This document shows, piece after piece, positions 8,686-28,150 of a DNA stretch of 29,897 nt (the first letter of the stretch is position 1; each line of letters opens with the position of its first letter). Location: UHGV virus genome UHGV-1792943, one strand, 5' to 3'. The translations under genes were made by a program, and so were the position numbers. The DNA comes from a virus. The notes under the pieces were generated by a model that ran no database searches, was not told the DNA's origin, and saw only the letters and a program-made list of their open reading frames with translations.

Positions 8686-10371
8686 ATGGCAACGAAAGAC
8701 AAAAACAAAGGCTTTCTGTCGGCATTGAAGAAAGCCTTCAACAGTGGCGATGTCACGCCTGCTGATCCGGTCGTTTTTACAAGCGGTCATAGTGTCGTTG
8801 CGCGTTCTGGTCTGTCTGCTTTACGTCCGGGTATCCTGGGTGGCAATAGCGATGGCATGACAAGCGCGGCAGATACAGTATCAATTTCGGCAGAACTGCC
8901 CGGCGACCGCCTGCAAAAATACAACATACTGGAGACGATGGCGAAAAGTCCGACTATCTCCACAGCATTAAACATTCACATTGCGCATTCTCTGGCTCCA
9001 TCAAAAAAAACAGGCCTCGCATTTATTCTCGCTCCGAAAAATGGGGCAGATAAGGAGGCTGTAAGTCGATGTGAGGAATTGACCGCTGATTTAAGCTCAA
9101 TGATTAATGATGGCCTGCCATCGTGGGCCATGATCATGGCTATTTTCGGTGTGTCGTATATCCGTCCATATGCAGAGCAAGGGAAGGGGATAACTGGAAT
9201 TGAGTCGAGCTATTACACGCTCCCTCATTTCGTTCAGGAGTTTTATCGCGGTAGCCAACTTGTCGGATTCAGCGGTGATTACATTCTGGATACGCATACT
9301 TTGCGCAGAGTTATAACCGAACCATGGAATCTGGTTTCCATGAAAAACCCGTACTGGACGCCTCAGCATAATGTAATGCCAGTAACTTACGGCACTAAAG
9401 GCTATTCCTTGCTTAGTGAACAGCAGGACAAGCCGTTAATGGAGACGCAGAACTACGGTACGTCATTTCTTGAATACAGTTATGAACCCTACCTGAATTT
9501 ATGTGCCGCGCTTGCTGCGCTGAAAGCAACGCGAAACAACGCTGCAAAAATTGATCGCCTGATTGCACTCACAACGAACACGATAGATCCGGTAAATGCG
9601 GCGAATTATACGCGCGGGGTCAGCCAGGCACTGAAGCGTCATAGCGACCTCGTAGCGCAACGGTCGATTAATTCTAATGCTCTCCCATCTGTACTTAACC
9701 ATCTGATACCCGTCATGGGGGATGGGAAGAACGGGATCACCATTGATACGCAATCTATACCCGCAGATATCAGTGGTATCGAAGACGTTATGTTTCATCT
9801 CCGACAGCTCGCGGCAAGCCTCGGTATTGACGCAACAATGCTTGGCTGGGCTGATCAGATGAGTGGTGGACTTGGAGAAGGCGGTTGGCAGCAAACAGCT
9901 ATCCAGGCCGCCTTACGCGCGAACTGGATCAGACAGGCCGCCCAGCGGACTATTTATCGGCTTCATGACATTCACCTCGCTTATAAATACGGGAAGGTTT
10001 ACACCGAAAAAAACCGTCCTTATGACGTGCAATTCAACTCAATGAACACAGCTATCCAGGAAGAGGAAAACCGAGAGCTGGATGCGCGCGCCAACTTCGT
10101 AGCTGTCATCTCGCAAATAATGGACCAGATCCAGAACAACCCGAAACTGGCGGGTAGCGACGCGTTTATGCGTTATCTGTTCACCGAACAGCTTTGTATC
10201 GACGATGACACTCTCAACGTAATGATCAAAGAGTTTAAAGCGAATGAATCAGAGCAAAACAACGAGCATGGTATGTACGAATCCGCGCCGTTGTCGTCCG
10301 GTGACGATCCGGAAAACTGGACGCAAGAACAATTAATCAACTTTGCAAAATTTGTGATGAGCAATAATTAA
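8686..10371 (+). CDS. putative portal / head structural protein (561 aa)
   Basis: Size and position immediately upstream of a protease/scaffold-like gene; no decisive motif seen. Confidence 0.4.
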   Translation: MATKDKNKGFLSALKKAFNSGDVTPADPVVFTSGHSVVARSGLSALRPGILGGNSDGMTSAADTVSISAELPGDRLQKYNILETMAKSPTISTALNIHIAHSLAPSKKTGLAFILAPKNGADKEAVSRCEELTADLSSMINDGLPSWAMIMAIFGVSYIRPYAEQGKGITGIESSYYTLPHFVQEFYRGSQLVGFSGDYILDTHTLRRVITEPWNLVSMKNPYWTPQHNVMPVTYGTKGYSLLSEQQDKPLMETQNYGTSFLEYSYEPYLNLCAALAALKATRNNAAKIDRLIALTTNTIDPVNAANYTRGVSQALKRHSDLVAQRSINSNALPSVLNHLIPVMGDGKNGITIDTQSIPADISGIEDVMFHLRQLAASLGIDATMLGWADQMSGGLGEGGWQQTAIQAALRANWIRQAAQRTIYRLHDIHLAYKYGKVYTEKNRPYDVQFNSMNTAIQEEENRELDARANFVAVISQIMDQIQNNPKLAGSDAFMRYLFTEQLCIDDDTLNVMIKEFKANESEQNNEHGMYESAPLSSGDDPENWTQEQLINFAKFVMSNN

Positions 10372-10384
10372 CCGGAGGGAAATA

Positions 10385-11383
10385 ATGCAATCACTGAATA
10401 CCGTTACGGATCGCTTCTCCCTGGTAGAGAAAATCCGCAAACACACACCTCAGAACAATCGCAATTACGTTATCCAGTCGGTACGAGACACATTCAACTC
10501 GCCAGAAACAAAAGAGCGTATCGCACTGGGTGAGATGTATGGTTATTACGGTCATGGTCGCCGGGCGATGCACTATAACAAAACGAAAAGCCTGGACTTG
10601 CCGGAAGTCTCTGTTGTGATGGTAGATGGGAAGCCTGTTGTATTGGAGAACGTGCCGTCAAACAGGACTATCGACATTTCAATTGACGACAACGGCATTG
10701 TTACCCATACACAGGAAATACTGGATACGGACACCGGACGTATTGTTCAGGGTATGATTAATTCTGGCGCAGGTGGTTGGTCATGGGCTACATCTGGTCC
10801 AGATTACTCTGTATCCCTGGTAAAGTCTTTTCACGGTTTTGATTACGTAACTGTGCCTAACTATATCAGCCTCGACAAGAAAAGCCTGATGCTTGAATCA
10901 GCAGAAGAACGCGACGCGGCGATTCATGCGGCACTTATCGAACAAGGTTTTACCGATAATGCTGCTACGGATCTGGTTCACCACTTTTCAGCAATGAAGA
11001 GTCAGCAAGCCATATTCGAATCAGCACAACGTGAAGTTCTGGAGTCGGAACTGATACATCTTGAAGTGGAAAATATGCAGCTTCGCGACAAACTACGCGA
11101 CCAGGCCGCGATGATGGAAAGCCAGGGGGAGAACGCGAAGAAATGCCGCCGTATTTTGCGTGATGCTATCCAGGAAATGCCTGTTTTTATCAGCGCAGAA
11201 CAGCGCCGGGCGCTCTGCCGTATGCAGTCAGAGGATGATGCACGCATTGTCGCAGCGATGCTTGAATCCCTGGGGGCTAATGCCACTTATGGTCTGCCAA
11301 TATCAGCCAATAAACAACAAGAAATACCGGTGAAAGAGAACAAGACGGTGACTCCGCTGATCTTTGTGTCTAAGAGGATGTGA
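10385..11383 (+). CDS. putative head maturation protease or scaffold protein (332 aa)
   Basis: SD GGAGGG; coiled-coil C-terminal half; position after the portal-like gene. Confidence 0.35.
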   Translation: MQSLNTVTDRFSLVEKIRKHTPQNNRNYVIQSVRDTFNSPETKERIALGEMYGYYGHGRRAMHYNKTKSLDLPEVSVVMVDGKPVVLENVPSNRTIDISIDDNGIVTHTQEILDTDTGRIVQGMINSGAGGWSWATSGPDYSVSLVKSFHGFDYVTVPNYISLDKKSLMLESAEERDAAIHAALIEQGFTDNAATDLVHHFSAMKSQQAIFESAQREVLESELIHLEVENMQLRDKLRDQAAMMESQGENAKKCRRILRDAIQEMPVFISAEQRRALCRMQSEDDARIVAAMLESLGANATYGLPISANKQQEIPVKENKTVTPLIFVSKRM

Positions 11384-11497: not shown

Positions 11498-11523
11498 AAA
11501 AGCCGCTGAGTAGCGGCTTTTGG
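11498..11523 (+). terminator. rho-independent terminator
   Basis: aagccgct-gagt-agcggctt followed by TTTT. Confidence 0.7.
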
Positions 11524-11582
11524 GTGTATAAATCCACTGGCATAGATTTATACGGTAGATAGATTTTTCACGGAACTATCTG

Positions 11583-12545
11583 GTGAGTATTTTAAATTCA
11601 GTTTCAGTTACTTTCAACACTTCTGAGTATAAAAACAACACTGAATACCACAAAAAAATCAAAGGTCATCAGTTGAGTTTTTTTGCTCGTCATAGCGGTT
11701 TTCTTTCCCCTTCACATAGCGCCATTATTGCCGAGTTCGCCAACCTGGCAGGAGCTACCGATGAATACATGATCCGTCGCTCATATGCGGATATGTCCGA
11801 GATTACAGGACGCAGTATTTCTACTGTGCGCCGGGCATTTGCCGAAGCGACGAAGTGCGGAATGCTTGTTAAGCAGCATCAGGTAGCGAATAACAATGCT
11901 CAGGTGTGTAACGTGTACCGGTTTACAACACAATTTCTCCACTTCATTCATGTAGCAATGGAGATAGGGAGTAAGCAGGGCATCAAATTTGCCAACGCCA
12001 CAAAACTGGTTAAGCAGTTGATTTCAAAGGTTCGTTATTTTTTTGAAACTGGGAACCCCCTGTTCAAATTGAACAAGTCCCCCCATGTTCAAAATGAACA
12101 GCCAATAGAAAATAAGAGTCACTCTATAGCCAAAAGAAGAGAAAGATCATGCGCGGTTCAGCCAAAGGCTTCACCAGCAGATAGTTCTCAAGCGGATAAT
12201 GGGGGGCTGGATAAAAAACCAGTAACCAGGGAAGAACATACCAACCACTGCCTGGCGGCGGCAAAAGCGAGAGCTGCAAAGCGTCGTTCAGATGAGGGGC
12301 ACGCAAAACGGCAGGCTCTGTATCGTACCGCTGAAAAGCTGGCAAAAAAATTTGCATGGATACGTAGTGCCGCTACAGCAGTGAATAAGCCTAAACAATC
12401 CAGTGCCCTGGATTTCTCAATGGATTATTCTGGCTCCCAGGGGTGTGCAACCATTGGTGAAGCCTTTGACCTGATGAAACAGCGTGGCTATCGGTCTGAA
12501 TTTGACCGGGAAGACTGGTCAATTCCGGAGGGCTTTCGGGGATGA
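11583..12545 (+). CDS. putative DNA-binding protein, possibly a replication initiator (RepL-like by context)
   Basis: GTG start, exact start uncertain. HTH-like segment MSEITGRSISTVRRAFAEA; basic C-terminal region; two 15-bp palindromes lie inside the coding sequence. Confidence 0.4.
   Translation: MSILNSVSVTFNTSEYKNNTEYHKKIKGHQLSFFARHSGFLSPSHSAIIAEFANLAGATDEYMIRRSYADMSEITGRSISTVRRAFAEATKCGMLVKQHQVANNNAQVCNVYRFTTQFLHFIHVAMEIGSKQGIKFANATKLVKQLISKVRYFFETGNPLFKLNKSPHVQNEQPIENKSHSIAKRRERSCAVQPKASPADSSQADNGGLDKKPVTREEHTNHCLAAAKARAAKRRSDEGHAKRQALYRTAEKLAKKFAWIRSAATAVNKPKQSSALDFSMDYSGSQGCATIGEAFDLMKQRGYRSEFDREDWSIPEGFRG
12061..12101. repeat. two near-identical 15-bp palindromes (TGTTCAAATTGAACA and TGTTCAAAATGAACA), each preceded by a C5-7 tract, inside the 11583-12545 CDS
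   Basis: Read directly at 12061-12075 and 12087-12101. Confidence 0.8.
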
Positions 12546-12602
12546 TGTTGCGATTGACTGTACAATAACCGTGCGGCGGGAATTTCATCGCTCGAAAATG
12601 TA

Positions 12603-12631
12603 TGTTAGAAAATTAAATTGATGTTTCTAAT
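12603..12631. promoter_or_regulatory. operator-like inverted pair (TGTTAGAAAA, 11 nt, TTTCTAAT)
   Basis: Upstream of the immI-like module. Confidence 0.45.
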
Positions 12632-12684
12632 CAAGAATGTATGATTTATATCGTCACTAAAAAACAGCATCTGATAAAAATTCT

Positions 12685-12698
12685 GTTGATCTTTCTAA
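12685..12698. promoter_or_regulatory. operator-like half site (TTGATCTTTCTAAT)
   Basis: Shares the TTGAT-N-TTTCTAAT core with the 12618-12631 half site. Confidence 0.4.
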
Positions 12699-12839
12699 TG
12701 TTCAGGCTTATATTCATGCCGTCGTAGCAAATTCTGCGACCGGGTTTAGCAGCCTGAATGTTAGTGCGGACAACCGCAGATATCCGATATTGCGGTATTT
12801 TTGTGTCCGTAAAACCGCGTTACGCCCAAATTATGGTGG

Positions 12840-12912
12840 GGCGTGATGGGGAGGCTTCGGCCTGCTGGTTTCACTAACGCCAGTCTGCTAACCCCGTCAC
12901 GTCCTGCCACCT
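12840..12912 (+). ncRNA. c4-like antisense regulatory RNA (boundaries approximate)
   Basis: Loops CACTAAC (12872-12878) and CTGCTAAC (12885-12892) are antiparallel complements of GTTTAGCAG and GTTAGTG. Those targets occur at 12746-12768 and again at 12913-12950, where GTTAGTG overlaps the SD of the downstream ORF. A UUCG tetraloop hairpin is present. Confidence 0.5.
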
Positions 12913-12961
12913 GTTTAGCAGCGGGTAGCAGGTTGTTAAACCTGTTAGTGAGGCCGTAACT

Positions 12962-13186
12962 ATGGTTAATGCCAATCCTTGCTCACGTCCAGAATTCATC
13001 TGGCGTTTTCACTCCCTGCAAAAACACTGCGATCACTTCGCAATTGCCGCAACTGAAAAAGAAGCCCGTTCTCTGATCCCTGATCAGTATGGCGTTCTCA
13101 CTGGTCGTTTCTCTACTTCCCCACAACCAAACACCAATCCCTGGTATCGCAATATTACCAATCCCGGCATTGCGGAGGCTCACTGA
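12962..13186 (+). CDS. icd: Icd-like small ORF translationally coupled to the antirepressor gene
   Basis: 74 aa; its SD is masked by the target repeat of the c4-like RNA; stop overlaps the ant start (TGATG). Architecture as in P1 immI. Confidence 0.5.
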   Translation: MVNANPCSRPEFIWRFHSLQKHCDHFAIAATEKEARSLIPDQYGVLTGRFSTSPQPNTNPWYRNITNPGIAEAH

Positions 13187-13893
13187 TGGATATCTGCATT
13201 CTCGAAAAGCCATCAATGACCAGCATTGAGATCGCGGAGCTGGTGGGAAAACGTCATGACAATGTGAAACGCACTATTGAGACATTAGACAAAGGTGGCG
13301 TTATTGTTCGTCCTCAAATTGAGGTTTTCGAAAAAATCAATAACTTAGGACTACGACGTAGTGTTGAGGCTTACGTCTTCGAAGGCGAGCAAAGCAAGCG
13401 CGATAGCATTATCGTCGTCGCGCAGCTCTCTCCCGAATTCACCGCCCGGCTGGTGGACCGCTGGCGCGAACTGGAAGAACAAGTACGCCAGCCGTTGACC
13501 GAAATAGAGATGATCGCTGCAATGGCTGCAAATGCAGTTCAGCAGCAAAAGCGGCTTCATGTTGTTGAGTCAAAGGTTAGCCAGGTTGCTGAAACCGTCG
13601 AGCAGATCAAGAAGGGCAACATGCCAGAAGGTTACATTGGCTATCGCCAGTTAGCGGCGAAATGTGGCCTGACTGAAGCCAAATGCCGTAACCTGGTCAA
13701 CGCTTACCGGATTCCCACAGATACGCATGAGTTTTTGACGCCAGAGGGGGTATTGTCGCGTCGTACTATTGTGGCCTTATCTCCCTTCATGAATGCCTTT
13801 ACCCTGATGATGTCGGAGGCTGAACACCGAGGAAAACGCTGGTATCACCCAAGGATGGGACAATTCCAGGTGATCGGTTGGGGAGGCGAGTGA
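13186..13893 (+). CDS. ant: antirepressor (Rha / Ant family)
   Basis: N-terminal SIEIAELVGKRHDNVKRTIETL is typical of Rha/antirepressor N-domains; SD GGAGG. Confidence 0.65.
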   Translation: MDICILEKPSMTSIEIAELVGKRHDNVKRTIETLDKGGVIVRPQIEVFEKINNLGLRRSVEAYVFEGEQSKRDSIIVVAQLSPEFTARLVDRWRELEEQVRQPLTEIEMIAAMAANAVQQQKRLHVVESKVSQVAETVEQIKKGNMPEGYIGYRQLAAKCGLTEAKCRNLVNAYRIPTDTHEFLTPEGVLSRRTIVALSPFMNAFTLMMSEAEHRGKRWYHPRMGQFQVIGWGGE

Positions 13894-14090
13894 TGGACAT
13901 CATGCAGGCGGTAAAAAAAATCAGGGAAGGACAGGCTGAAGTGTGCCGCCGTAAAGCATGGAGTGTTGGTATATGGATCTGGCCTGATAATTGCTCTACT
14001 ACCGGATGGTTTTGTATTAATGGATGCCAGATCCGGGAAGTCGATTTATCGACGGCGGATGCAGTCGGTAATGATTGGATCGTAACTTGA
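13893..14090 (+). CDS. small DUF2829 (Tad2)-like protein, 65 aa
   Basis: TGATG coupling to ant; SD GGGGAGG. Carries G-x3-V-x-RR-x2-W near the N-terminus and NDWIV at the C-terminus, shared with two other ORFs in the window. Confidence 0.45.
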   Translation: MDIMQAVKKIREGQAEVCRRKAWSVGIWIWPDNCSTTGWFCINGCQIREVDLSTADAVGNDWIVT

Positions 14091-14098
14091 AGTGTGAT

Positions 14099-14123
14099 GC
14101 CCCGGCCTGGCCGGGGCTTTTTC
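14099..14123 (+). terminator. rho-independent terminator
   Basis: gccccgg-cctgg-ccggggc followed by TTTTT. Confidence 0.75.
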
Positions 14124-14613
14124 ATGCCTCATTAGTTGAGGTTGCTGCGTCGCCGACAGGTAACAGAGCTGTATTGCGTGGTTCGCCAGCAGGCCAGCGA
14201 TAGCCAGACACTCTTGATGTTGGGAATGCGCGAATATTAACAGCATCCCCCTGGTTCCCACCCAAGACAAGCAGATCGCCATTGGCGCGGCGTCCGACAA
14301 CAAAGCCTACATGCCCACCGCCTGCGCGAGTAAATACAACGATACATCCGTATGCCGGTGTATCTAATTTCTCGCCCCAATCCAGATAGGATTTTGCCGA
14401 CTCAAATCTTGTTGAGCGGATGCCTACACGTTCCAGCATTGCACCGACAAATGCTGCGCACCACGGCGTTTCATCGTCTTTAATTCCACCGCGCTTAATA
14501 TCCCGCCAGAACTGGACGATCTCAGGATTGTGTTTCGCTCCTTTTATTTCGGTGACTCCAATATTTTTACGGGCTTCAATAAGCCAGCGAGGTTCATTAT
14601 TGATCATAATCAT
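14122..14613 (-). CDS. CHAP / NlpC-P60-like peptidoglycan hydrolase (TIGR02594-like)
   Basis: Candidate catalytic Cys in PWCAAFVGAM and His in GGGHVGFVVG. The true start may be the third codon (14607), which has better SD spacing. Confidence 0.55.
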   Translation of the reverse strand: MIMINNEPRWLIEARKNIGVTEIKGAKHNPEIVQFWRDIKRGGIKDDETPWCAAFVGAMLERVGIRSTRFESAKSYLDWGEKLDTPAYGCIVVFTRAGGGHVGFVVGRRANGDLLVLGGNQGDAVNIRAFPTSRVSGYRWPAGEPRNTALLPVGDAATSTNEA

Positions 14614-15394: not shown

Positions 15395-18300
15395 TTGAGG
15401 GGGCTTCCTTTGGACAAAATAATTGATTCAATTAGCCAGGCCACCAGCATTGGGGCGCTGATTGAAATTGTTAGTCGGTTGCATAAACCGCGAGCTGTAG
15501 TGACCTTTGGCGTTAAGAAAGTCGATGGCGTCAGTATTCAGAAAACACGCCGGGCAGCAAACAACGCCGCAGTAAATCTTCTTAATTCCCTTCCGCCTGG
15601 CTTCGATGGGGCGAAATTAACTGACGAACAGCGCCAGATTCTTGCCGGGTATACCGGTGAAGGCGGCCTGACAGATGGTGAGGGCAGCCAATACGAATAC
15701 TATACGCCACAGTTTATGGCAGAAGGTATATGGGATCTCTTCGGCGACTACGGTATTGATAGCGGTCACGTACTGGAACCGTCAGCAGGCACAGGTATTT
15801 TCCAGGAGACAAAACGGCAGGGCATGATAATGACCAGCGCCGAACTGTCTCCGATCTCCGGTCGAATAAACCAGCTTTTGCACCCGGAAGATGATGTGAA
15901 TATCGGGGCGTTTGAGGCGCTGGCGGCGAAAGATGCAATGTATGACCACGCAGTTGGTAACGTACCGTTTGGCGAAGGGCGTTCCGGCGTCGCCGGGCTT
16001 GATCCGGCATATGCAAACGAGAAGAACGTTGGCAATTATTTTGTGCTGCGCACGATCGACAAGGTTAAGCCTGGTGGACTAATTGTATTGGTGGTGCCGA
16101 ATGGCATGACCGATGGTACGAAATACAAAAAATTGCGCGATAAAGTCAGCCGTAAAGCGGAATTTTTGGGCGCGCATCGTATGCCTTCTGGTACGTTCAG
16201 CGAATCCGGTACAGATACCGTGGTGGACGTATGGGTATTGCGTAAACACCCGGAAACCTTCCTGGAGATGATCCCCGACACGGATGATGCAACGCTCAAA
16301 TCGGCAAACGTCCTTTGGGATACCTTCCTCAAAGGGAAATGGTTTACAACCGAAGGGAAGCGATTTGTTTACGGCGACATGGAACGCACCAGCTTCCGCA
16401 ATACCCTGGTGGTGAAAAAGGACGGTCGTGTATCCAATGAGTCGATGAAAACCGCGTTATCACGCCGCTTTGAAAGCCGTATTAATTGGGATTTGCTCGG
16501 AGTAACTACCCAGGCATGGCAGGGCGCAAAAGTAGGGGATAAGCGTCTTGTAGGCGGTATCTGGCATGAGTTTGATGGCCTGAAATGGGTTAAGGACACG
16601 ACAACCAAATCCTCCGCGCTTGATGTAAGTCGATATGGTGTTTCGACGTTTGGCGATCTGCAGATCGCGTTCCAGTCAACAAACGGGATTCTGGCTTTGT
16701 CATGGGACCAGATATCGGCGATCGCGTCCGACTATCCATCGGTTGTCAGTGATGAAGTGGCAGCAATGATTCGCTTTGCTGGCAAACAGCGAGAAAAAGA
16801 CAGGGAGCGCGTTATGCGCGGTGCGTTGATAGGGCAGTTGATCAACAAGGCACTTGATTTGCGTAACCTGGGGGTGAACGTTGATGACAAACTGGCAGAT
16901 GCATCCCGCCTGGCGGCAGCAGAAGTTGCGAAGTATGGACCACCGCACGCGATTAAGCTGAATGGGCTTGCTGAAGCTGGCGCTAAAAACTGGATGACGT
17001 TCACTGGCAATGTGAAACAGGATGGTTCCACTTCTGACCTTCTGGCAGGGCGACTTGATGTAACGGATGGTGCTGCCGGTATTGACTTTACACGTCCGGA
17101 ACAAGTGATAGCACATCTTTTCAGTGATGTAGCCCTTAATCCTATAACGCTGGGCGACTTTCGTGAGGCGTTTGCTGGTGAACTGCCAGAGGACGACGAC
17201 GCGGCCCTTGAATACCTGGCGAAATTTGATGATATCGCTATTGATGGGTATGGCTGCCTGCTACCGATGGACCGCGCCACCAGCGGCGATATTGTAACCA
17301 AAACAGCATTGCTGGTGGGCTGGCGTGATGCATCAACAGGTGAGCAGAAAGCGAACTTTGAGCGTCAGTTGGCGAAAATCGAAGAGAAACGCATTTTCAC
17401 GCCACTAAATAAAGTCACCGTTAATCTGAACGCCCGCTGGCTGGATCGCCGCTTGATAAAAGAGTTCCTGGCAGAGCAGGGCTATGACGAGTTTAAGTAC
17501 ACAGAACCTGATCTGAAGATCGTCGATGGCATTCTGGTATCTCCGGACGATTACGAAGGTAAGGACGGGGTATTTACCGGCTATCAGCTACGAACCGTAA
17601 ACGGCAAAAACGGGAATGAGTTCAAGAAGGCCAACAATAAAGACGGCTTCCTGAACCAGTTAGAAAACTACCTGAACGGTGTTAAACCGCGTGGGCAGAA
17701 CGCTAACGAGTACCTGGATAAAATTGCTCAACTGGAAGTTAGCTTTAACGACTGGTTACGCACCCACCCGCAGGCGGATCAGATAGCCCGTGACTATAAC
17801 GACGCATTCAATGGCTTCATTCCGTTCACGCACTCTAACGCACCGCTTGGCCTGGAAGGGATTAGTGGAAAGCGCATTCCTCTGACTTATCAGAATGAAG
17901 AAGTTCGTCGCTTGTCAGAAGATGGGCGCGGCATCATGGGATTTGGTACCGGGCTGGGTAAAACCACGACCGCGCTTGCGCTTGAGGCGTATAACTTCGA
18001 AACAGGTCGTACTAAACGCACGTGTATTGTTGTTCCGAAGGCGGTTTATCAGAACTGGTATCACGAGGCACAGAGCTTCTACAGTGCTGATGCCTTCGCC
18101 AATATGATGTTTATCGGTCTGGATGAAGTTCGTGATGACAGCGGAAATATTCTGACCGCTCCGGTGCTTGATGAAAATGGCGAACCCCGCCTCGACAGTA
18201 ACGGGCAGCCTCTTACCAGAAATGTTGTGAAAGAGTCCGCCAGCGCCGTTATCGTTCAGCGCATGAACATGATCCCGTCGTCAAATTGGCGAACGGTCAT

Positions 18301-21300
18301 CATGACAAAAGAACAATTCGCGTCTATCCCGCTACGAGAAAAAACCATCGAGGAGAACTCACAGCAAGCTGTCTTTAATGCTGTGGAAATGGGGCGTCTT
18401 GACCTGGCGTCTGGTAAACATCGTGATGCGCAGAAGAAGAACAAGATTAAGGATCAGGCCGCGAATACCGGTACAACGAAGAAGCAGAATATCCCGTACT
18501 TTGAGGATATGAACTTCGATAGCGTGATTGCCGACGAGGGGCATAACTACCGCAACTCCTTTAATGCCGGGCGTGAAGCGGGACAACTGGCATATTTGCC
18601 TAACCCGGCAGTATCCAAGATGGCCCGCGACATGGCTGTAAAAGCTGCGTACATGATGAAACGCAACAACGGGCGTGGTGTAGTCATGCTGACGGCAACA
18701 CCGCTGGTGAACAGTCCGATTGATGCCTTCAACATGCTGTCTACAGTCATTCCGCAGGAAGAGTGGATGCGCATGGGCATCATTACGCCTGATGATTTCG
18801 TTCGTGTGTTTGGTAAAACAGCCACAGTTCAGGTCCAGAAAATTTCCGGGGAAGTGGAAGAGAAGCAGGGGCTGGTTGGCTTCCAGAACCTTGATGGCCT
18901 GCGTGGTATTTTCCATCGCTGGACTACTCTGAAGACTGCTGCGGACGTCGGGGCGACGGTTAAAATCCCTGATATTGTCGAGAATACCTTGCAGATCCCG
19001 ATGACAGGGGAGCAGGAGGCTGCTTATGAAGAGCTTCGTAAGCGTGCACAGGAGTTAAGTAGTAAAGATGCGCTGACGGTTGATGAAAACGGGCATATCA
19101 CAAACGAAAAACCGGATGATTTCATCTTCTCCATCATCCGCGACATGGATAAGGTTGCTATAGATCCGGATCTGTATGCCAGTGCGATTACATTCCAGTT
19201 CCCCGTTGAGCTTGCAGACAAGGTAAAAGCTATTGCTGATGCCCTGCCAAAAGTAGCTGGCGGTAAAGTGGCAGATGATGCAGACGAGGCCGAAGAAGAC
19301 GGCGCTGGTGGGCTGGTTAGTACGCGCACCAGTAAGGTAGTGAAGACCACCTTTAGTGAACATCCGGCGCATGTTGAAATACGTGCCAGCATTGAACTGG
19401 AAGCTGAAATACTGAAGGCCATTGCTGCCGCCGGGATTGATATGCAGCAGGTATCACACCCAATCCCGCCGAAGTATGCCGCGCTGATCGAAAACCTTCG
19501 TGAAGGTCTGAAGAACGGTAAACAAATTGTCTTCATTGATGAAAAAGCCCAGCACCAGAAGCTGCGCCGTATTATCGCCAGTGCACTGCAAATGCCGGAG
19601 CAAGAGATAGGCATTATCAATGCGACGACCGTTAGCCAGGCTGGCGGCATCAAGCTGAAGAAGGTGAATAAGCCGACTGAACCTACTCCGAATAAAAACG
19701 GTGAATACAAAGAAGGGGCATGGGAAACCTACTACAGCAAACTTGCCCAATATGAGGATTATCTCTCAGCTAAAAATGATGCTGGCCTTGAGGGTATGGA
19801 AGGCATTGCCGCCGACTATAACGAAGGGCGCACGCGCATAATTATCTGTAACAAGAAGGCTGAAGTAGGTATTAACCTGCATATCGGGACAACCGATATC
19901 CACCACCTGACACTACCCTGGACACCAGCCAGTATCGACCAACGAAATGGGCGCGGTGCGCGCGTAGGTTCACCGCAAGAGAAGGTCAATGTTCACTACT
20001 ATTGTGGCAAAGGCACATTCGACGACTTCCGTCTGGATACGCTGAAACGTAAGAAAGACTGGATCAAGATGGTGATGACCTCCGACATGTCAGAGATCGC
20101 CAATGGTGATGCGGATGATGCTGATGAACGCGCCATTATGCTGGCGGCAAACCCGGAAGAACGCCGCGCAATCATGGCTCGCCAGGCGCAAGAGCGTGAA
20201 GAACGTCTGAAACTGAAAGCACAGCGCGAGGCCAACAATGCTCTCGATATCTACCTGAAAGCGGCAAACGCCGCTGGAAAAGATATCGGCATGATGGAGA
20301 CAGAACTGAAAAGCGCGATGGAACAGATAGAGTATTACCAGCGAAATCTTGACGACCTGATAAAAGCAGGTACGAACAGGAATGGGCAAAAATTCGCGCT
20401 TGAGCAGTTGAGTAGCTACAGAAAACGTGCGCGGGTGCTGCGGTTTGCGATCACCAGGGCAAAAGACGCGGATACCATAATGAAACGCTCTCGTGGTGAT
20501 GTGGAGCGCGCTATTAAGTCTGGTGTGCTGGATATCAGTATCGATGTTATTCAGAACCCACAGGAATATATGCGCACTGACAAGAATATCCTGTTGCATA
20601 AAGGTAGTTATTACCGTGCAGTCATTGATGATCGCGAAACAACAGCGATTGTCCGGGTGGAAAAAATTGACGGTGAAAAAGCACAATACCTCTGCCGTAT
20701 CGCCTGGCTGGATAGAGCAAGTCGTTACGCTCGATCACCGGGGTCAATCGTTACATTGCCGTTTGACTCTGTGATTGAAGCGGTAACTTTTGAAGAGGGG
20801 GTAGCTGAATCGCGCGCAACGGCTGCGCGTGGTGTTCAGTGCCACCAGCTATCAACAATACTTACTCGCGATCAGTTCTATGATGCTATTCGCAATGGGG
20901 TAATGAATGTTATTGCTGGTAAACCTGGTAATGCATGGGGCGGTGGGTCAGCTATTAAATACTGGGCATATCGCACAGATGATGGTCAGATCGCGCTGTC
21001 ATCGGCCTATGATGGCGTGATAGGCCAAAAAATCGGGCGAGCATCGGATATAGCACCTGAACGATGGATATATCCAGATGGCAACGATGAGGCGCTGAAG
21101 CGTGAAGTGGCAAAAATACAAGCCAGTGATAACCCGCTGAATATCGTGGACGGCGAGGGATTCCTCCAGGCATTGTATGGGTATGATTACATCCAGGGAA
21201 TGCAGGCATGGGGCGCACAGGCAACGATGGATGATGTTGTCCAGGAGTTCGAAAACTGGATGGCTGGGCGTGGTCTGTCAGGTCGTTCGCTTAATAAAGT

Positions 21301-22246
21301 CACTTCTGAAGATATTCTTAGCTTGTTCCGCAAACCGTCCGGAGAAGGTCTGGAATCATTCTGGAGGACCGTGCTGGCATACCGTTTATTCAAGGGCAGA
21401 ATGAAAGCCTTTAGCAATATCGATGATATTGAACGGATGTTTAATCAGGTCAAGATCGCCAAAATTAAGACGAAGATCGAAAAAACACGTTCTGCGCTGG
21501 TGGCCTGGCGCGATGCATTGTTTGAGCAATATAAATCACTCAGTGATGCAGATGGATGGGCGGCATTGGAACAGTTGGCGAATAATGGGGTAGATGGAGC
21601 GAAACTCGCCATAGTCCAGGCTGATAACCCCCTGGAATCACCGGCAGCACAGTGGATTAAGGTGGGGGCTGTCATCAATGCATTTGATGAAAAACACATT
21701 AGTAAGGACGATTTTGCTGATGCTGTTTCTGTTAATCGCCTGGTAGAAATGGCTACCCGCCGCGCCCGTGAGTTGAAAGACGGTGACTATGTGAATGAGT
21801 TGCCGGATGCGCTCAAATCAGCAACGTGGCAAGACTATGTATCGCTGAAAAACGGCGGGGCCACCGAATCAGAGATCGCGGAAAGGCTTGAACAGGCTGA
21901 AAGCAAAAGAGAAGAGCAGGCGGCAGTGGCTGAAGCCAGAGCTGATGAAGCGGCGAATGATGACTATATCATTGTGGTTAATGATAAGCCGATTCGCGCT
22001 AAGGCGCGTGTTCGCGGGCGCTGGTGGAGTGTCAGCGAGGACGTCGGTGCGGTTTATCTCATTGCCGACCAACCTGGTTCCTCGACAATACGGAACGCCA
22101 AAGACGCGATTAAGAAGATTGGCGGGCGTTTCTGGAATTTTGAAGCAAACCCGGTTGCTGATGTGAACTTTGACCGTCCTGCATGGATGGTATCTACGCG
22201 TTACTCGGTAGATGAACTGCGTAAAATAATCGCCGATGCGGCCTAA
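15395..22246 (+). CDS. darB: giant N6-adenine methyltransferase plus SF2 helicase protein, DarB-like (2283 aa)
   Basis: MTase motifs YYTP, EPSAGTG (nt 15776-15796) and GNVPFG (nt 15956-15973). Helicase motifs: Walker A GTGLGKTT (from nt 17939), DEGH (nt 18533-18544), TATP, QRNGRGAR. TTG start is uncertain. Architecture and size match phage P1 DarB as recalled. Confidence 0.7.
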   Translation: MRGLPLDKIIDSISQATSIGALIEIVSRLHKPRAVVTFGVKKVDGVSIQKTRRAANNAAVNLLNSLPPGFDGAKLTDEQRQILAGYTGEGGLTDGEGSQYEYYTPQFMAEGIWDLFGDYGIDSGHVLEPSAGTGIFQETKRQGMIMTSAELSPISGRINQLLHPEDDVNIGAFEALAAKDAMYDHAVGNVPFGEGRSGVAGLDPAYANEKNVGNYFVLRTIDKVKPGGLIVLVVPNGMTDGTKYKKLRDKVSRKAEFLGAHRMPSGTFSESGTDTVVDVWVLRKHPETFLEMIPDTDDATLKSANVLWDTFLKGKWFTTEGKRFVYGDMERTSFRNTLVVKKDGRVSNESMKTALSRRFESRINWDLLGVTTQAWQGAKVGDKRLVGGIWHEFDGLKWVKDTTTKSSALDVSRYGVSTFGDLQIAFQSTNGILALSWDQISAIASDYPSVVSDEVAAMIRFAGKQREKDRERVMRGALIGQLINKALDLRNLGVNVDDKLADASRLAAAEVAKYGPPHAIKLNGLAEAGAKNWMTFTGNVKQDGSTSDLLAGRLDVTDGAAGIDFTRPEQVIAHLFSDVALNPITLGDFREAFAGELPEDDDAALEYLAKFDDIAIDGYGCLLPMDRATSGDIVTKTALLVGWRDASTGEQKANFERQLAKIEEKRIFTPLNKVTVNLNARWLDRRLIKEFLAEQGYDEFKYTEPDLKIVDGILVSPDDYEGKDGVFTGYQLRTVNGKNGNEFKKANNKDGFLNQLENYLNGVKPRGQNANEYLDKIAQLEVSFNDWLRTHPQADQIARDYNDAFNGFIPFTHSNAPLGLEGISGKRIPLTYQNEEVRRLSEDGRGIMGFGTGLGKTTTALALEAYNFETGRTKRTCIVVPKAVYQNWYHEAQSFYSADAFANMMFIGLDEVRDDSGNILTAPVLDENGEPRLDSNGQPLTRNVVKESASAVIVQRMNMIPSSNWRTVIMTKEQFASIPLREKTIEENSQQAVFNAVEMGRLDLASGKHRDAQKKNKIKDQAANTGTTKKQNIPYFEDMNFDSVIADEGHNYRNSFNAGREAGQLAYLPNPAVSKMARDMAVKAAYMMKRNNGRGVVMLTATPLVNSPIDAFNMLSTVIPQEEWMRMGIITPDDFVRVFGKTATVQVQKISGEVEEKQGLVGFQNLDGLRGIFHRWTTLKTAADVGATVKIPDIVENTLQIPMTGEQEAAYEELRKRAQELSSKDALTVDENGHITNEKPDDFIFSIIRDMDKVAIDPDLYASAITFQFPVELADKVKAIADALPKVAGGKVADDADEAEEDGAGGLVSTRTSKVVKTTFSEHPAHVEIRASIELEAEILKAIAAAGIDMQQVSHPIPPKYAALIENLREGLKNGKQIVFIDEKAQHQKLRRIIASALQMPEQEIGIINATTVSQAGGIKLKKVNKPTEPTPNKNGEYKEGAWETYYSKLAQYEDYLSAKNDAGLEGMEGIAADYNEGRTRIIICNKKAEVGINLHIGTTDIHHLTLPWTPASIDQRNGRGARVGSPQEKVNVHYYCGKGTFDDFRLDTLKRKKDWIKMVMTSDMSEIANGDADDADERAIMLAANPEERRAIMARQAQEREERLKLKAQREANNALDIYLKAANAAGKDIGMMETELKSAMEQIEYYQRNLDDLIKAGTNRNGQKFALEQLSSYRKRARVLRFAITRAKDADTIMKRSRGDVERAIKSGVLDISIDVIQNPQEYMRTDKNILLHKGSYYRAVIDDRETTAIVRVEKIDGEKAQYLCRIAWLDRASRYARSPGSIVTLPFDSVIEAVTFEEGVAESRATAARGVQCHQLSTILTRDQFYDAIRNGVMNVIAGKPGNAWGGGSAIKYWAYRTDDGQIALSSAYDGVIGQKIGRASDIAPERWIYPDGNDEALKREVAKIQASDNPLNIVDGEGFLQALYGYDYIQGMQAWGAQATMDDVVQEFENWMAGRGLSGRSLNKVTSEDILSLFRKPSGEGLESFWRTVLAYRLFKGRMKAFSNIDDIERMFNQVKIAKIKTKIEKTRSALVAWRDALFEQYKSLSDADGWAALEQLANNGVDGAKLAIVQADNPLESPAAQWIKVGAVINAFDEKHISKDDFADAVSVNRLVEMATRRARELKDGDYVNELPDALKSATWQDYVSLKNGGATESEIAERLEQAESKREEQAAVAEARADEAANDDYIIVVNDKPIRAKARVRGRWWSVSEDVGAVYLIADQPGSSTIRNAKDAIKKIGGRFWNFEANPVADVNFDRPAWMVSTRYSVDELRKIIADAA

Positions 22247-26799: not shown

Positions 26800-26876
26800 G
26801 ATGGTGTAGCTCAGTAGGATAGAGCAGCAGCCTTCTAAGCTGTCGGTCGGTGGTTCGAATCCACCCACCATCGCCA
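26800..26876 (+). tRNA. tRNA-Arg (anticodon TCT)
   Basis: Full cloverleaf folded by hand: acceptor gatggtg / caccatc, anticodon loop cttctaa, T-loop ttcgaat, encoded CCA. Confidence 0.8.
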
Positions 26877-26882
26877 ATTTAG

Positions 26883-26968
26883 GGGAGTTAGTCCGTAGGG
26901 GTAGCGGGGTAGACTGTAAATCTACTGTCATTGCGACTCGGATGGTTCGACTCCATCACTCCCCACCA
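26883..26968 (+). tRNA. tRNA-Tyr-like (anticodon GTA), long variable arm, slightly irregular D-arm
   Basis: Acceptor ggggagt / actcccc, anticodon stem gtaga / tctac with loop ctgtaaa, 15-nt variable arm, T-loop ttcgact, CCA. Confidence 0.5.
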
Positions 26969-26972
26969 AATT

Positions 26973-27048
26973 GCCGGTTTAGCTCAGTTGGTAGAGCGCC
27001 TGCCTTGTAAGCAGGATGTCAGCGGTTCGAGTCCGTTAACCGGCACCA
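26973..27048 (+). tRNA. tRNA-Thr (anticodon TGT)
   Basis: Acceptor gccggtt / aaccggc, anticodon loop cttgtaa, T-loop ttcgagt, CCA. Confidence 0.8.
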
Positions 27049-28074: not shown

Positions 28075-28150
28075 GGCCCTTTAGCTCAGTGGTTAGAGCG
28101 GGCGACTCATAATCGCACGGTCACCGGTTCAAGTCCGGTAGGGGCCACCA
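28075..28150 (+). tRNA. tRNA-Ile2 (anticodon CAT, lysidine type)
   Basis: Near-identical to the enterobacterial ileX-type tRNA as recalled: acceptor ggccctt / aggggcc, anticodon loop ctcataa, T-loop ttcaagt, CCA. Confidence 0.8.

Follow-up and report, generated by a model that had tools for sequence, protein, structure and literature searches.

A probable immI-type immunity operon with a mixed P7/P1 recognition code in a D6-like member of the P1 family

Differences between their C4 loops make phages P1 and P7 heteroimmune, and in P1 the dependence of downstream expression on icd works through Rho-dependent polarity. Passages in two papers set out how this expression in P1 depends on the translation of icd, which is blocked when C4 pairs with the targets a2 and b2 (PMC8201110, PMC8198154), and a list of RNase P substrates names the C4 RNAs of P1 and P7 (PMC2190699). 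For a D6-like plasmid, homologues of c4, icd and the antirepressor gene have been described together with a C1 homologue, no Lxc being reported (PMC6799933), and the record of phage D6 itself annotates icd (orf19) and an 'anti-repressor' (orf18). In the D6 and plasmid records that we consulted, neither the c4 RNA nor its targets appear as features, and PLSDB lists no RNA genes. Here we describe a locus in the viral genome UHGV-1792943 (29,897 nt; this whole stretch of DNA is what we call the window) in which we can annotate with confidence a c4 RNA with its four targets, icd, a gene of the Roi/Rha type and, coupled to it, a small open reading frame (ORF). Sequence comparison makes it highly probable, at roughly 0.88, that they form a working immunity operon of the immI type in a plasmid prophage that is D6-like and belongs to the P1 family. 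This is an RNA switch of a long-known kind of phage immunity, and the present data leave the established mechanism unchanged; the D6 variant has also been noted in the literature before, and what differs from the characterised P1, P7 and D6 types is the combination of a P7-type a allele with a P1-type b allele, one that is common in sequenced plasmids.

The locus is laid out as one or more promoters, an a1b1 leader, c4, a2b2, icd, the Roi/Rha-type gene, orf65 and a terminator. Over 12540-14100 the window is 99.7% identical to the E. coli plasmid NZ_CP085065 (the closest plasmid, which carries a second module that is considered below) and 89.7% identical in DNA to phage D6 over 97% of the stretch, and more than 100 complete plasmids span these positions in full with 93-99.7% conservation. 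The part common to P1 and P7 is 12686-13073 only (promoter, leader, c4, targets and the first half of icd, ~91%), homology to P1 at the DNA level stopping within icd at ~13073, and for 12700-12965 the identity is 94.0% with P1 and 95.9% with P7. When the window, P1, P7 and D6 are aligned four ways, the C4 stems are invariant and the changes are concentrated in six recognition elements, with few single-nucleotide polymorphisms (SNPs) besides. Because of this 94-96% identity, the invariant stems and the concentration of differences in the recognition elements, the window's c4 is, judged by sequence, an orthologue of P1 c4 and not an analogue of diverged sequence. An earlier sequence-only reading had held that the locus reproduces the logic of P1 c4-icd-ant with diverged sequences; the logic is upheld by two Rfam models, by Icd homology and by the three-way covariation of the elements, and it is the divergence that does not stand, since a1b1-c4-a2b2 keeps the stems of P1 and P7 at the identity just given.

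The RNA at the center of this locus is well defined. The Rfam model of the C4 antisense RNA (RF01695) matches 12829-12914 (+) over its full length (model 1-87 of 87) with 70.0 bits against a gathering score of 45, and the c4 segment 12833-12911 (79 nt) folds at -45.4 kcal/mol with z = -5.8 and none of the shuffled sequences as stable; a fold of this region and a comparison with the Rfam model were two of the checks that the sequence-only reading had proposed, and both speak for it. The minimum free energy and centroid structures have a long closing stem, a UUCG hairpin (the tetraloop that had been anticipated in a structured region, present at 12856-12859), a further hairpin that shows b' as its loop, and a' left unpaired. 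In P1, where the RNA is annotated, scaffold and flanks are the same. The description of the RNA as cis-encoded antisense holds for the pairing of its loops but not in the classical sense of transcription from the opposite strand, as C4 comes from the strand and the transcript of its own targets. A protein-coding reading of the small ORFs that lie over c4 (38-49 aa) was rejected in view of the match to an RNA model, the confinement of variation to the pairing elements and the established nature of P1 c4 as an RNA. The RNA elements are as follows.

12721-12802, + strand: a1b1 leader, an IsrK-type unit made of hairpin 1, hairpin 2 showing a1, the b1 linker and a hairpin with U5 (Rfam, folds)
12744-12752, + strand: target a1, GTTTAGCAG, with the pairing core TTAGCAG at 12746-12752; P7-type allele (read directly, alignment, composite scan)
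12760-12766, + strand: target b1, GTTAGTG; P1-type allele (read directly, alignment, composite scan)
12773-12802, + strand: terminator-like hairpin ACCGCA/TGCGGT followed by TTTTT (folds, isrK match)
12835-12911, + strand: predicted mature C4 RNA, 77 nt (ends taken from the P1 misc_RNA annotation by way of the identical scaffold)
12856-12859, + strand: UUCG tetraloop of the first internal hairpin, capping a GGC/GCC stem (sequence, Rfam, fold)
12872-12878, + strand: b' loop CACTAAC (CACUAAC in RNA), P1-type, the loop of the second internal hairpin (alignment, fold, scan)
12885-12892, + strand: a' element CTGCTAAC (CUGCUAAC in RNA), P7-type, single-stranded in the multiloop, core CTGCTAA at 12885-12891 (alignment, fold, scan)
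12913-12921, + strand: target a2, GTTTAGCAG, core at 12915-12921, on a short hairpin (read directly, scan, fold)
12944-12950, + strand: target b2, GTTAGTG(A), pairing to 12951 (read directly, scan)

The order a1, b1, b', a', a2, b2 is the same in all relatives. A composite pattern, TTAGCAG-N5-35-GTTAGTG, has exactly three matches in the window (two on the + strand and one on the - strand, with 0.01 expected from shuffles), and these are a1b1, the c4 loops in antisense and a2b2. The two repeat pairs and the antiparallel complements between them had thus been recognised correctly from the letters, apart from the coordinates of the first pair (12746-12768), which were 2 nt off. The specificity is mixed, the a elements being the P7 allele (TTAGCAG/CUGCUAA) and the b elements the P1 allele (GTTAGTG/CACUAAC); D6 combines the P1 allele of a with a b allele of its own (ACTTACG/CGTAAGT). 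Cognate duplexes are predicted at -6.2 kcal/mol for a and -9.4 kcal/mol for b, and mismatched alleles at -0.5 to -3.4 kcal/mol. The window's C4 would accordingly make a single full contact with P1 targets (through b) and a single one with P7 targets (through a), and with D6 targets both contacts are weak (-3.4 and -0.5 kcal/mol). Backbone SNPs mark the cassette as a P7-type scaffold with a P1-type b, its promoter-proximal part being D6-like.

These contacts are also supported by covariation. We scanned IMG/VR with an invariant 28-nt core, which gave 120 loci, and in 116 full-length copies we determined each of the six elements. In every copy but one diverged outlier (L064, left unscored in the covariation count), a1 equals a2 and is the complement of a', and b1 equals b2 and is the complement of b'. 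This three-way covariation backs the earlier claim that the complementary loops define the immunity specificity, L064 excepted, and since a1 and b1 covary with a' and b', the pairing of C4 with a1b1 is therefore under selection. Two a alleles occur, with a third in L064, and six b alleles, and 11 of the 12 possible a x b combinations were seen. The combination of the window is present in 10 to 11 of the surveyed copies, and its exact 48-nt b'-a' core is found at 100% identity in 34 PLSDB plasmids, whose hosts are E. coli, E. albertii, E. fergusonii and Salmonella; the same cassette is also found ahead of a P1-type Ant1. From these patterns one may conceive of C4 specificity as a modular code with two keys, reassorting in nature on an invariant 77-nt scaffold, with the same cassettes set before different cargos and the leader acting as an active anti-antisense partner, an idea that we advance tentatively and rate at less than an even chance. 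In the literature searched, which did not take in the primary D6 and P1 papers, there was no account of a combinatorial allele repertoire or of mixed-type modules within a genome.

Several observations touch on this repertoire. Since the elements are interleaved, recombination that swaps only the a or only the b set would need several crossovers in intervals that are 6-22 nt long; almost every combination of a and b nevertheless exists, on near-identical scaffolds. P1-size single contigs can hold 2-4 c4 modules with an identical scaffold core and always different a/b combinations, mostly before diverged Ant paralogues; the IMG/VR contigs of this kind are 2703718869_000013 (L018, L053, L101, L122), 651053023_000001 (L015, L078, L105), 2713896909_000009 (L068, L094, L123) and three others, and L018 and L122 have a common b allele and differ in a alone. 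A scan of genome contigs, with one genome per species, found three loci only. One P1-type c4 cassette, with the P7 allele of a and the D6 allele of b, lies on a 2867-nt contig (L127, JAFAFU010000019.1) labelled as a Bacillota metagenome-assembled genome, a label that in all likelihood reflects a binning artefact, not the true host.

The leader upstream of c4 deserves separate attention. The stretch 12708-12760 matches the Rfam model c4-a1b1 (RF03163) in full (model 1-53 of 53) with 53.9 bits against a gathering score of 46.7. At relaxed thresholds the isrK model (RF01394) also matches, over its full length and with its terminator included, at 12721-12802 (46.0 bits, E 6.5e-9), short of the gathering score of 50, and the window leader thus resembles isrK in architecture without curated membership. 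An outer helix (GGACA/TGTCC, 12768-12772 and 12804-12808) encloses the leader hairpin and its U-run, and this inner arrangement recurs within the outer helix in three diverged leaders (the window, L064 and the second module of NZ_CP085065) whose stem sequences differ. The third hairpin was judged from the isrK model alignment and from single folds; RNAalifold on four a1b1-type leaders was uninformative for it, MAFFT having left the diverged stems out of register. The two Rfam models, as we observe here, describe overlapping parts of one kind of leader, both matching within 12708-12802; the Rfam output places c4-a1b1 in the C4 clan (CL00128) and gives isrK no clan. A 2025 review has IsrK and c4 as separate entries, and no description of an equivalence between c4-a1b1 and IsrK was met in the literature that we searched.

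This architecture suggests that the a1b1 leader may be released as an IsrK-like small RNA of ~80 nt, a decoy that titrates C4, the ratio of terminated to read-through transcripts forming a positive arm of the switch. The full coverage by the isrK model and the hairpin and U-run preserved in three diverged leaders agree with such a role, as do the second module of NZ_CP085065, where a bona fide isrK (62.7 bits) containing a1 and b1 lies directly 5' of C4 (77.1 bits), and the covariation of a1/b1 with a'/b', which is as strict as that of a2/b2. In Gifsy-1, IsrK exists as a short terminated and a read-through RNA and activates in trans the translation of the coupled pair orf45-anrP; its authors, however, invoke alternative mRNA structures and not the titration of a C4-like RNA (PMC4825925). 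The score of the window leader is also under gathering (46 vs 50), its U-run is just 5 nt long and predicted to lie inside the outer helix, and a simple terminator scan did not call the hairpin at 12773-12802. We therefore regard a decoy leader as possible, though somewhat short of probable; if it holds, the covariation of a1b1 and the IsrK-like architecture would turn the leader from a bystander into an active anti-antisense partner.

Upstream of the leader, two promoter-like sequences and a repeat were located.

12605-12630, no strand assigned: inverted repeat TTAGAAA-N12-TTTCTAA over the -35 of the upstream promoter, conserved in D6; a candidate repressor site (read directly, alignment)
12618-12645, + strand: putative promoter TTGATG-16-TATGAT in the position of P1 P2c4/P51a (promoter scan, P1 annotation)
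12686-12714, + strand: putative promoter TTGATC-17-TATATT, aligned with the constitutive P1 promoter P1c4/P51b (scan, alignment)

The second promoter-like sequence (12686-12714) matches the annotated -35/-10 of P1 column for column. A 14-nt direct repeat, TTGAT[G/C]TTTCTAAT, lies on both -35 boxes (within 12605-12631 and at 12686-12699), its first copy being part of the inverted repeat.

Downstream of c4 the locus encodes three overlapping genes and closes with a terminator.

12950-12953, + strand: Shine-Dalgarno sequence of icd, GAGG, its first G in common with b2 (read directly)
12962-13186, + strand: icd homologue of 74 aa, start ATG at 12962 (BLASTP, NCBIfam, PHROG)
13186-13893, + strand: Roi/Rha-type anti-repressor-like protein, 235 aa, with its own GGAGG at 13174-13178 (Pfam, PHROG, D6 homology)
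13893-14090, + strand: orf65, 65 aa, its start overlapping the preceding stop (TGATG, 13891-13895; phrog_7385, 2.2e-46)
14099-14122, + strand: intrinsic terminator of 8 G-C pairs and TTTTT, closing the operon (terminator scan)

The 74-aa product is 61% identical to P1 Icd (E 8e-27), identical to that of D6, and matched by phrog_1426 and by the NCBIfam family phage_ICD_like (NF033153; 40 bits, 3e-10, cut-off 25 bits). Both overlaps that had been read from the letters are in place: b2 (12944-12950) runs into the Shine-Dalgarno sequence of icd, and in a TGATG at 13184-13188 the stop of icd (TGA, 13184-13186) shares a base with the following start (ATG, 13186-13188). In these two respects, an icd with b2 over its ribosome-binding site and an icd stop that overlaps the following start, the locus has what characterises a P1-type immI. 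The icd gene is rich in C and poor in G (32% and 17%), and the gene that follows has 23% C and 28% G.

The 235-aa cargo protein, which had been called an antirepressor, carries that label at the level of the family. It matches phrog_63, 'anti-repressor Ant', at 5.7e-48, a family to which P1 Ant1 also has a match, and both proteins match phrog_1726; BLASTP and two PHROG alignments place residues 5-135 of the window protein in a consistent register with 111-245 of Ant1, and an N-terminal/central region common to the two is likely on this sequence evidence. The protein is 89% identical to D6 orf18 and has full-length relatives in phiP27 and other phages. Its residues 11-98 are matched by the Pfam family Phage_pRha (PF09669; 36.9 bits, gathering 29.9, 5.5e-9), and weak winged helix-turn-helix domains were also detected. 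The small gene behind it, orf65, is conserved in D6-type loci (92% identical to the D6 counterpart, orf17) and has its equivalent in the C-terminal domain of a 313-aa fusion paralogue encoded by the second module of NZ_CP085065 (residues 249-313, 35% identical, E 4e-16), the Rha part of which is 64% identical to the window protein. We also observed a weak, sub-threshold Pfam match of orf65 to Tad2-like / Thoeris anti-defence 2 (E 0.0095, 16.9 bits, cut-off 25), and a separate DUF2829 protein is encoded on the closest plasmid at 27840-28490. Three classes of cargo are found behind c4 cassettes: P1-type Ant1+KilA+RepL, diverged Ant paralogues, and D6-type Rha+orf65.

A number of these comparisons weigh against a functional operon of the immI type. 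An identity with P1 Ant1/2 does not hold: no KilAC/ANT domain was detected by Pfam in the 235-aa protein, the same search finding ANT in P1 Ant1 at 1.2e-30 and KilA also carrying KilAC/ANT; BLASTP against Ant1 is not significant (E 0.33); and hhalign of Rha-type against Ant1-type profiles gives a probability of 0.1%, a value that with such shallow profiles (Neff ~1.5) decides in neither direction. The regulator downstream of icd is not of the Ant1/Ant2 type, with KilAC/ANT and two in-frame products, and RefSeq names the cargo 'Rha family transcriptional regulator'. Binding of C1 by the cargo is on this account putative. At the promoters, no match to the C1 operator consensus of P1 occurs anywhere in the window with up to 3 mismatches allowed, and the 14-nt repeat does not recur as a good match elsewhere in the closest plasmid (94 kb), on which account it was rejected as a genome-wide operator; as the consensus is absent and the repeat is not genome-wide, a repressor acting on the upstream promoter is at most putative. 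Rho polarity in an untranslated icd is here a prediction from base composition.

The cargo evidence raises the question of whether the same RNA switch might have another output, the 235-aa protein and orf65 being a DNA-binding lytic regulator like Roi of HK022/HK97 and not an inactivator of a C1-type repressor. The domain content (Phage_pRha and weak winged helix-turn-helix only) and the RefSeq name point in this direction, as do the 78-84% identity of residues 11-98 to Roi from several Stx/lambdoid phages and the finding of a Rha-like and an Ant-like gene in one c4-icd operon; as both occur there, the two are not simply interchangeable. This operon (L049, IMGVR_UViG_2579778564_000018) has icd, a Rha-like gene 54% identical to that of the window and an Ant1-like gene (63%) in series, and its c4 is of the window's specificity type. 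Yet the cargo sits exactly in the ant slot behind icd, it belongs with Ant1 in phrog_63 with three alignments agreeing on the register, and many proteins with an N-terminal Rha domain are annotated as anti-repressors, some of them with KilAC. AnrP of Gifsy-1, moreover, raises the expression of a phage operon (PMC4825925), its kinship to the window protein not being assumed. We consider a Roi-like output unlikely on balance, if still a serious contender, and keep to an anti-repressor-like cargo.

By comparison, it is very improbable that the plasmid carries the module as an inactive remnant. A remnant would be in keeping with the failure to identify a C1-type operator, either with the P1 consensus in the window or with the 14-nt repeat in the closest plasmid, but the match is perfect for each of the six recognition elements, the three genes (icd, the Rha-type gene and orf65) are intact with the overlaps seen in D6, the stretch is conserved at 93-99.7% in more than 100 complete plasmids with the exact c4 core in 34, and the covariation across alleles shows ongoing selection.

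For the functional operon, the following course of events is proposed. Transcription from the P51b-type promoter at 12686-12714 would yield one RNA, and from it a 77-nt C4 RNA (12835-12911) would be excised, by analogy with P1 with RNase P making the 5' end. The b' loop of C4 (CACUAAC) and its single-stranded a' (CUGCUAA) would then pair with b2 (12944-12951) and a2 (12915-12921) in other copies of its own transcript, or in that made by a superinfecting phage. Pairing at b2 would hide the first bases of the icd Shine-Dalgarno sequence and leave icd untranslated; coupled translation would be lost and Rho would be expected to terminate transcription before the cargo gene, because of the stop/start overlaps and the C-rich, G-poor RNA of icd. 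The anti-repressor-like protein of the prophage would in this way be kept off, and incoming phages with matching a/b targets would meet immunity. Occlusion of the Shine-Dalgarno sequence in vivo and anti-repressor activity of the cargo are both expected here from what holds in P1.

With its mixed code, a(P7)/b(P1), the window is a hybrid of natural origin. It has one key in common with each of the classical heteroimmune phages, and it offers a ready test of how many of the two short contacts immunity needs. If the two-key code is true, its pattern of cross-immunity would reveal whether one key suffices and whether P1-like and D6-like prophages form one network, and specificity in P1/D6-type phage-plasmids, important carriers of resistance genes in Enterobacteriaceae, would come down to a small and easily typed combinatorial code.

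The surroundings of the module are those of D6. Immediately 5' of it lies a RepL-like lytic replication gene (11583-12545, +), and a CHAP-domain peptidoglycan hydrolase gene (14122-14613, -) converges on the operon terminator, followed by the gene of a 2283-aa DarB-like methyltransferase/helicase (15395-22246, +), all three in synteny with D6. Four + strand tRNA genes (26800-26873, 26882-26965, 26973-27045 and 28075-28147) are as expected of a P1/D6-like tRNA region. A second c4/icd region is mentioned for the D6-like plasmid of the literature (PMC6799933), and outside the window the closest plasmid (L124, NZ_CP085065.1) carries a second, more diverged immunity module at ~9748-11170 (-). It consists of the isrK and C4 matches given above, an icd-like gene and the 313-aa Rha-type ORF with a fused orf65-like C-terminus; its code is a TTGGAAC and b GTCAAAGG, the latter overlapping the Shine-Dalgarno sequence AAGGAGG. 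A third, weak C4 match on this plasmid (39.5 bits) lies at 11519-11598.

Compared with the immI of P1 and P7, the promoter P51b, the a1b1 leader, the C4 scaffold, the a2b2 leader, the Shine-Dalgarno sequence and the first half of icd are orthologous by sequence, and the order of the elements and the icd stop overlapping the next start are the same. The window differs in its mixed code (a from the P7 allele, b from the P1 allele) and in its cargo, a 235-aa Roi/Rha-type protein with orf65, whereas P1 has Ant1/Ant2 with KilAC. The setting differs too: immI of P1 lies between sim and kilA-repL, with repL downstream, whereas the window's module follows a repL-like gene and precedes a terminator and a CHAP-domain gene. 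With the immI-like region of D6 (orf19, orf18, orf17) the window shares the cargo and the context of a pro-like gene, a repL-like gene, the module, a CHAP-domain gene and a darB-like gene, and the two differ in the recognition alleles, D6 having the P1 allele of a and a b of its own. The CI RNA of phage P4 ends transcription of the replication operon prematurely, without an icd and without masking of a Shine-Dalgarno sequence. Like C4, it is a small RNA processed out of an untranslated leader that pairs up- and downstream of itself, through seqA, seqB and seqC (PMC4825925). The isrK-orf45-anrP region of Gifsy-1 in Salmonella (IsrK, STnc1160) differs in that its small ORF is not Icd, in the isrK score of the window leader, which is under gathering, and in its published mechanism, an activation by IsrK in trans via alternative structures (PMC4825925). 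It resembles the window in its two-hairpin leader, which has a terminator of its own and is also read through, and in its layout, with a stable processed RNA downstream and a small ORF on whose translation an anti-repressor-like gene depends, the stop of the one overlapping the start of the other (PMC4825925).

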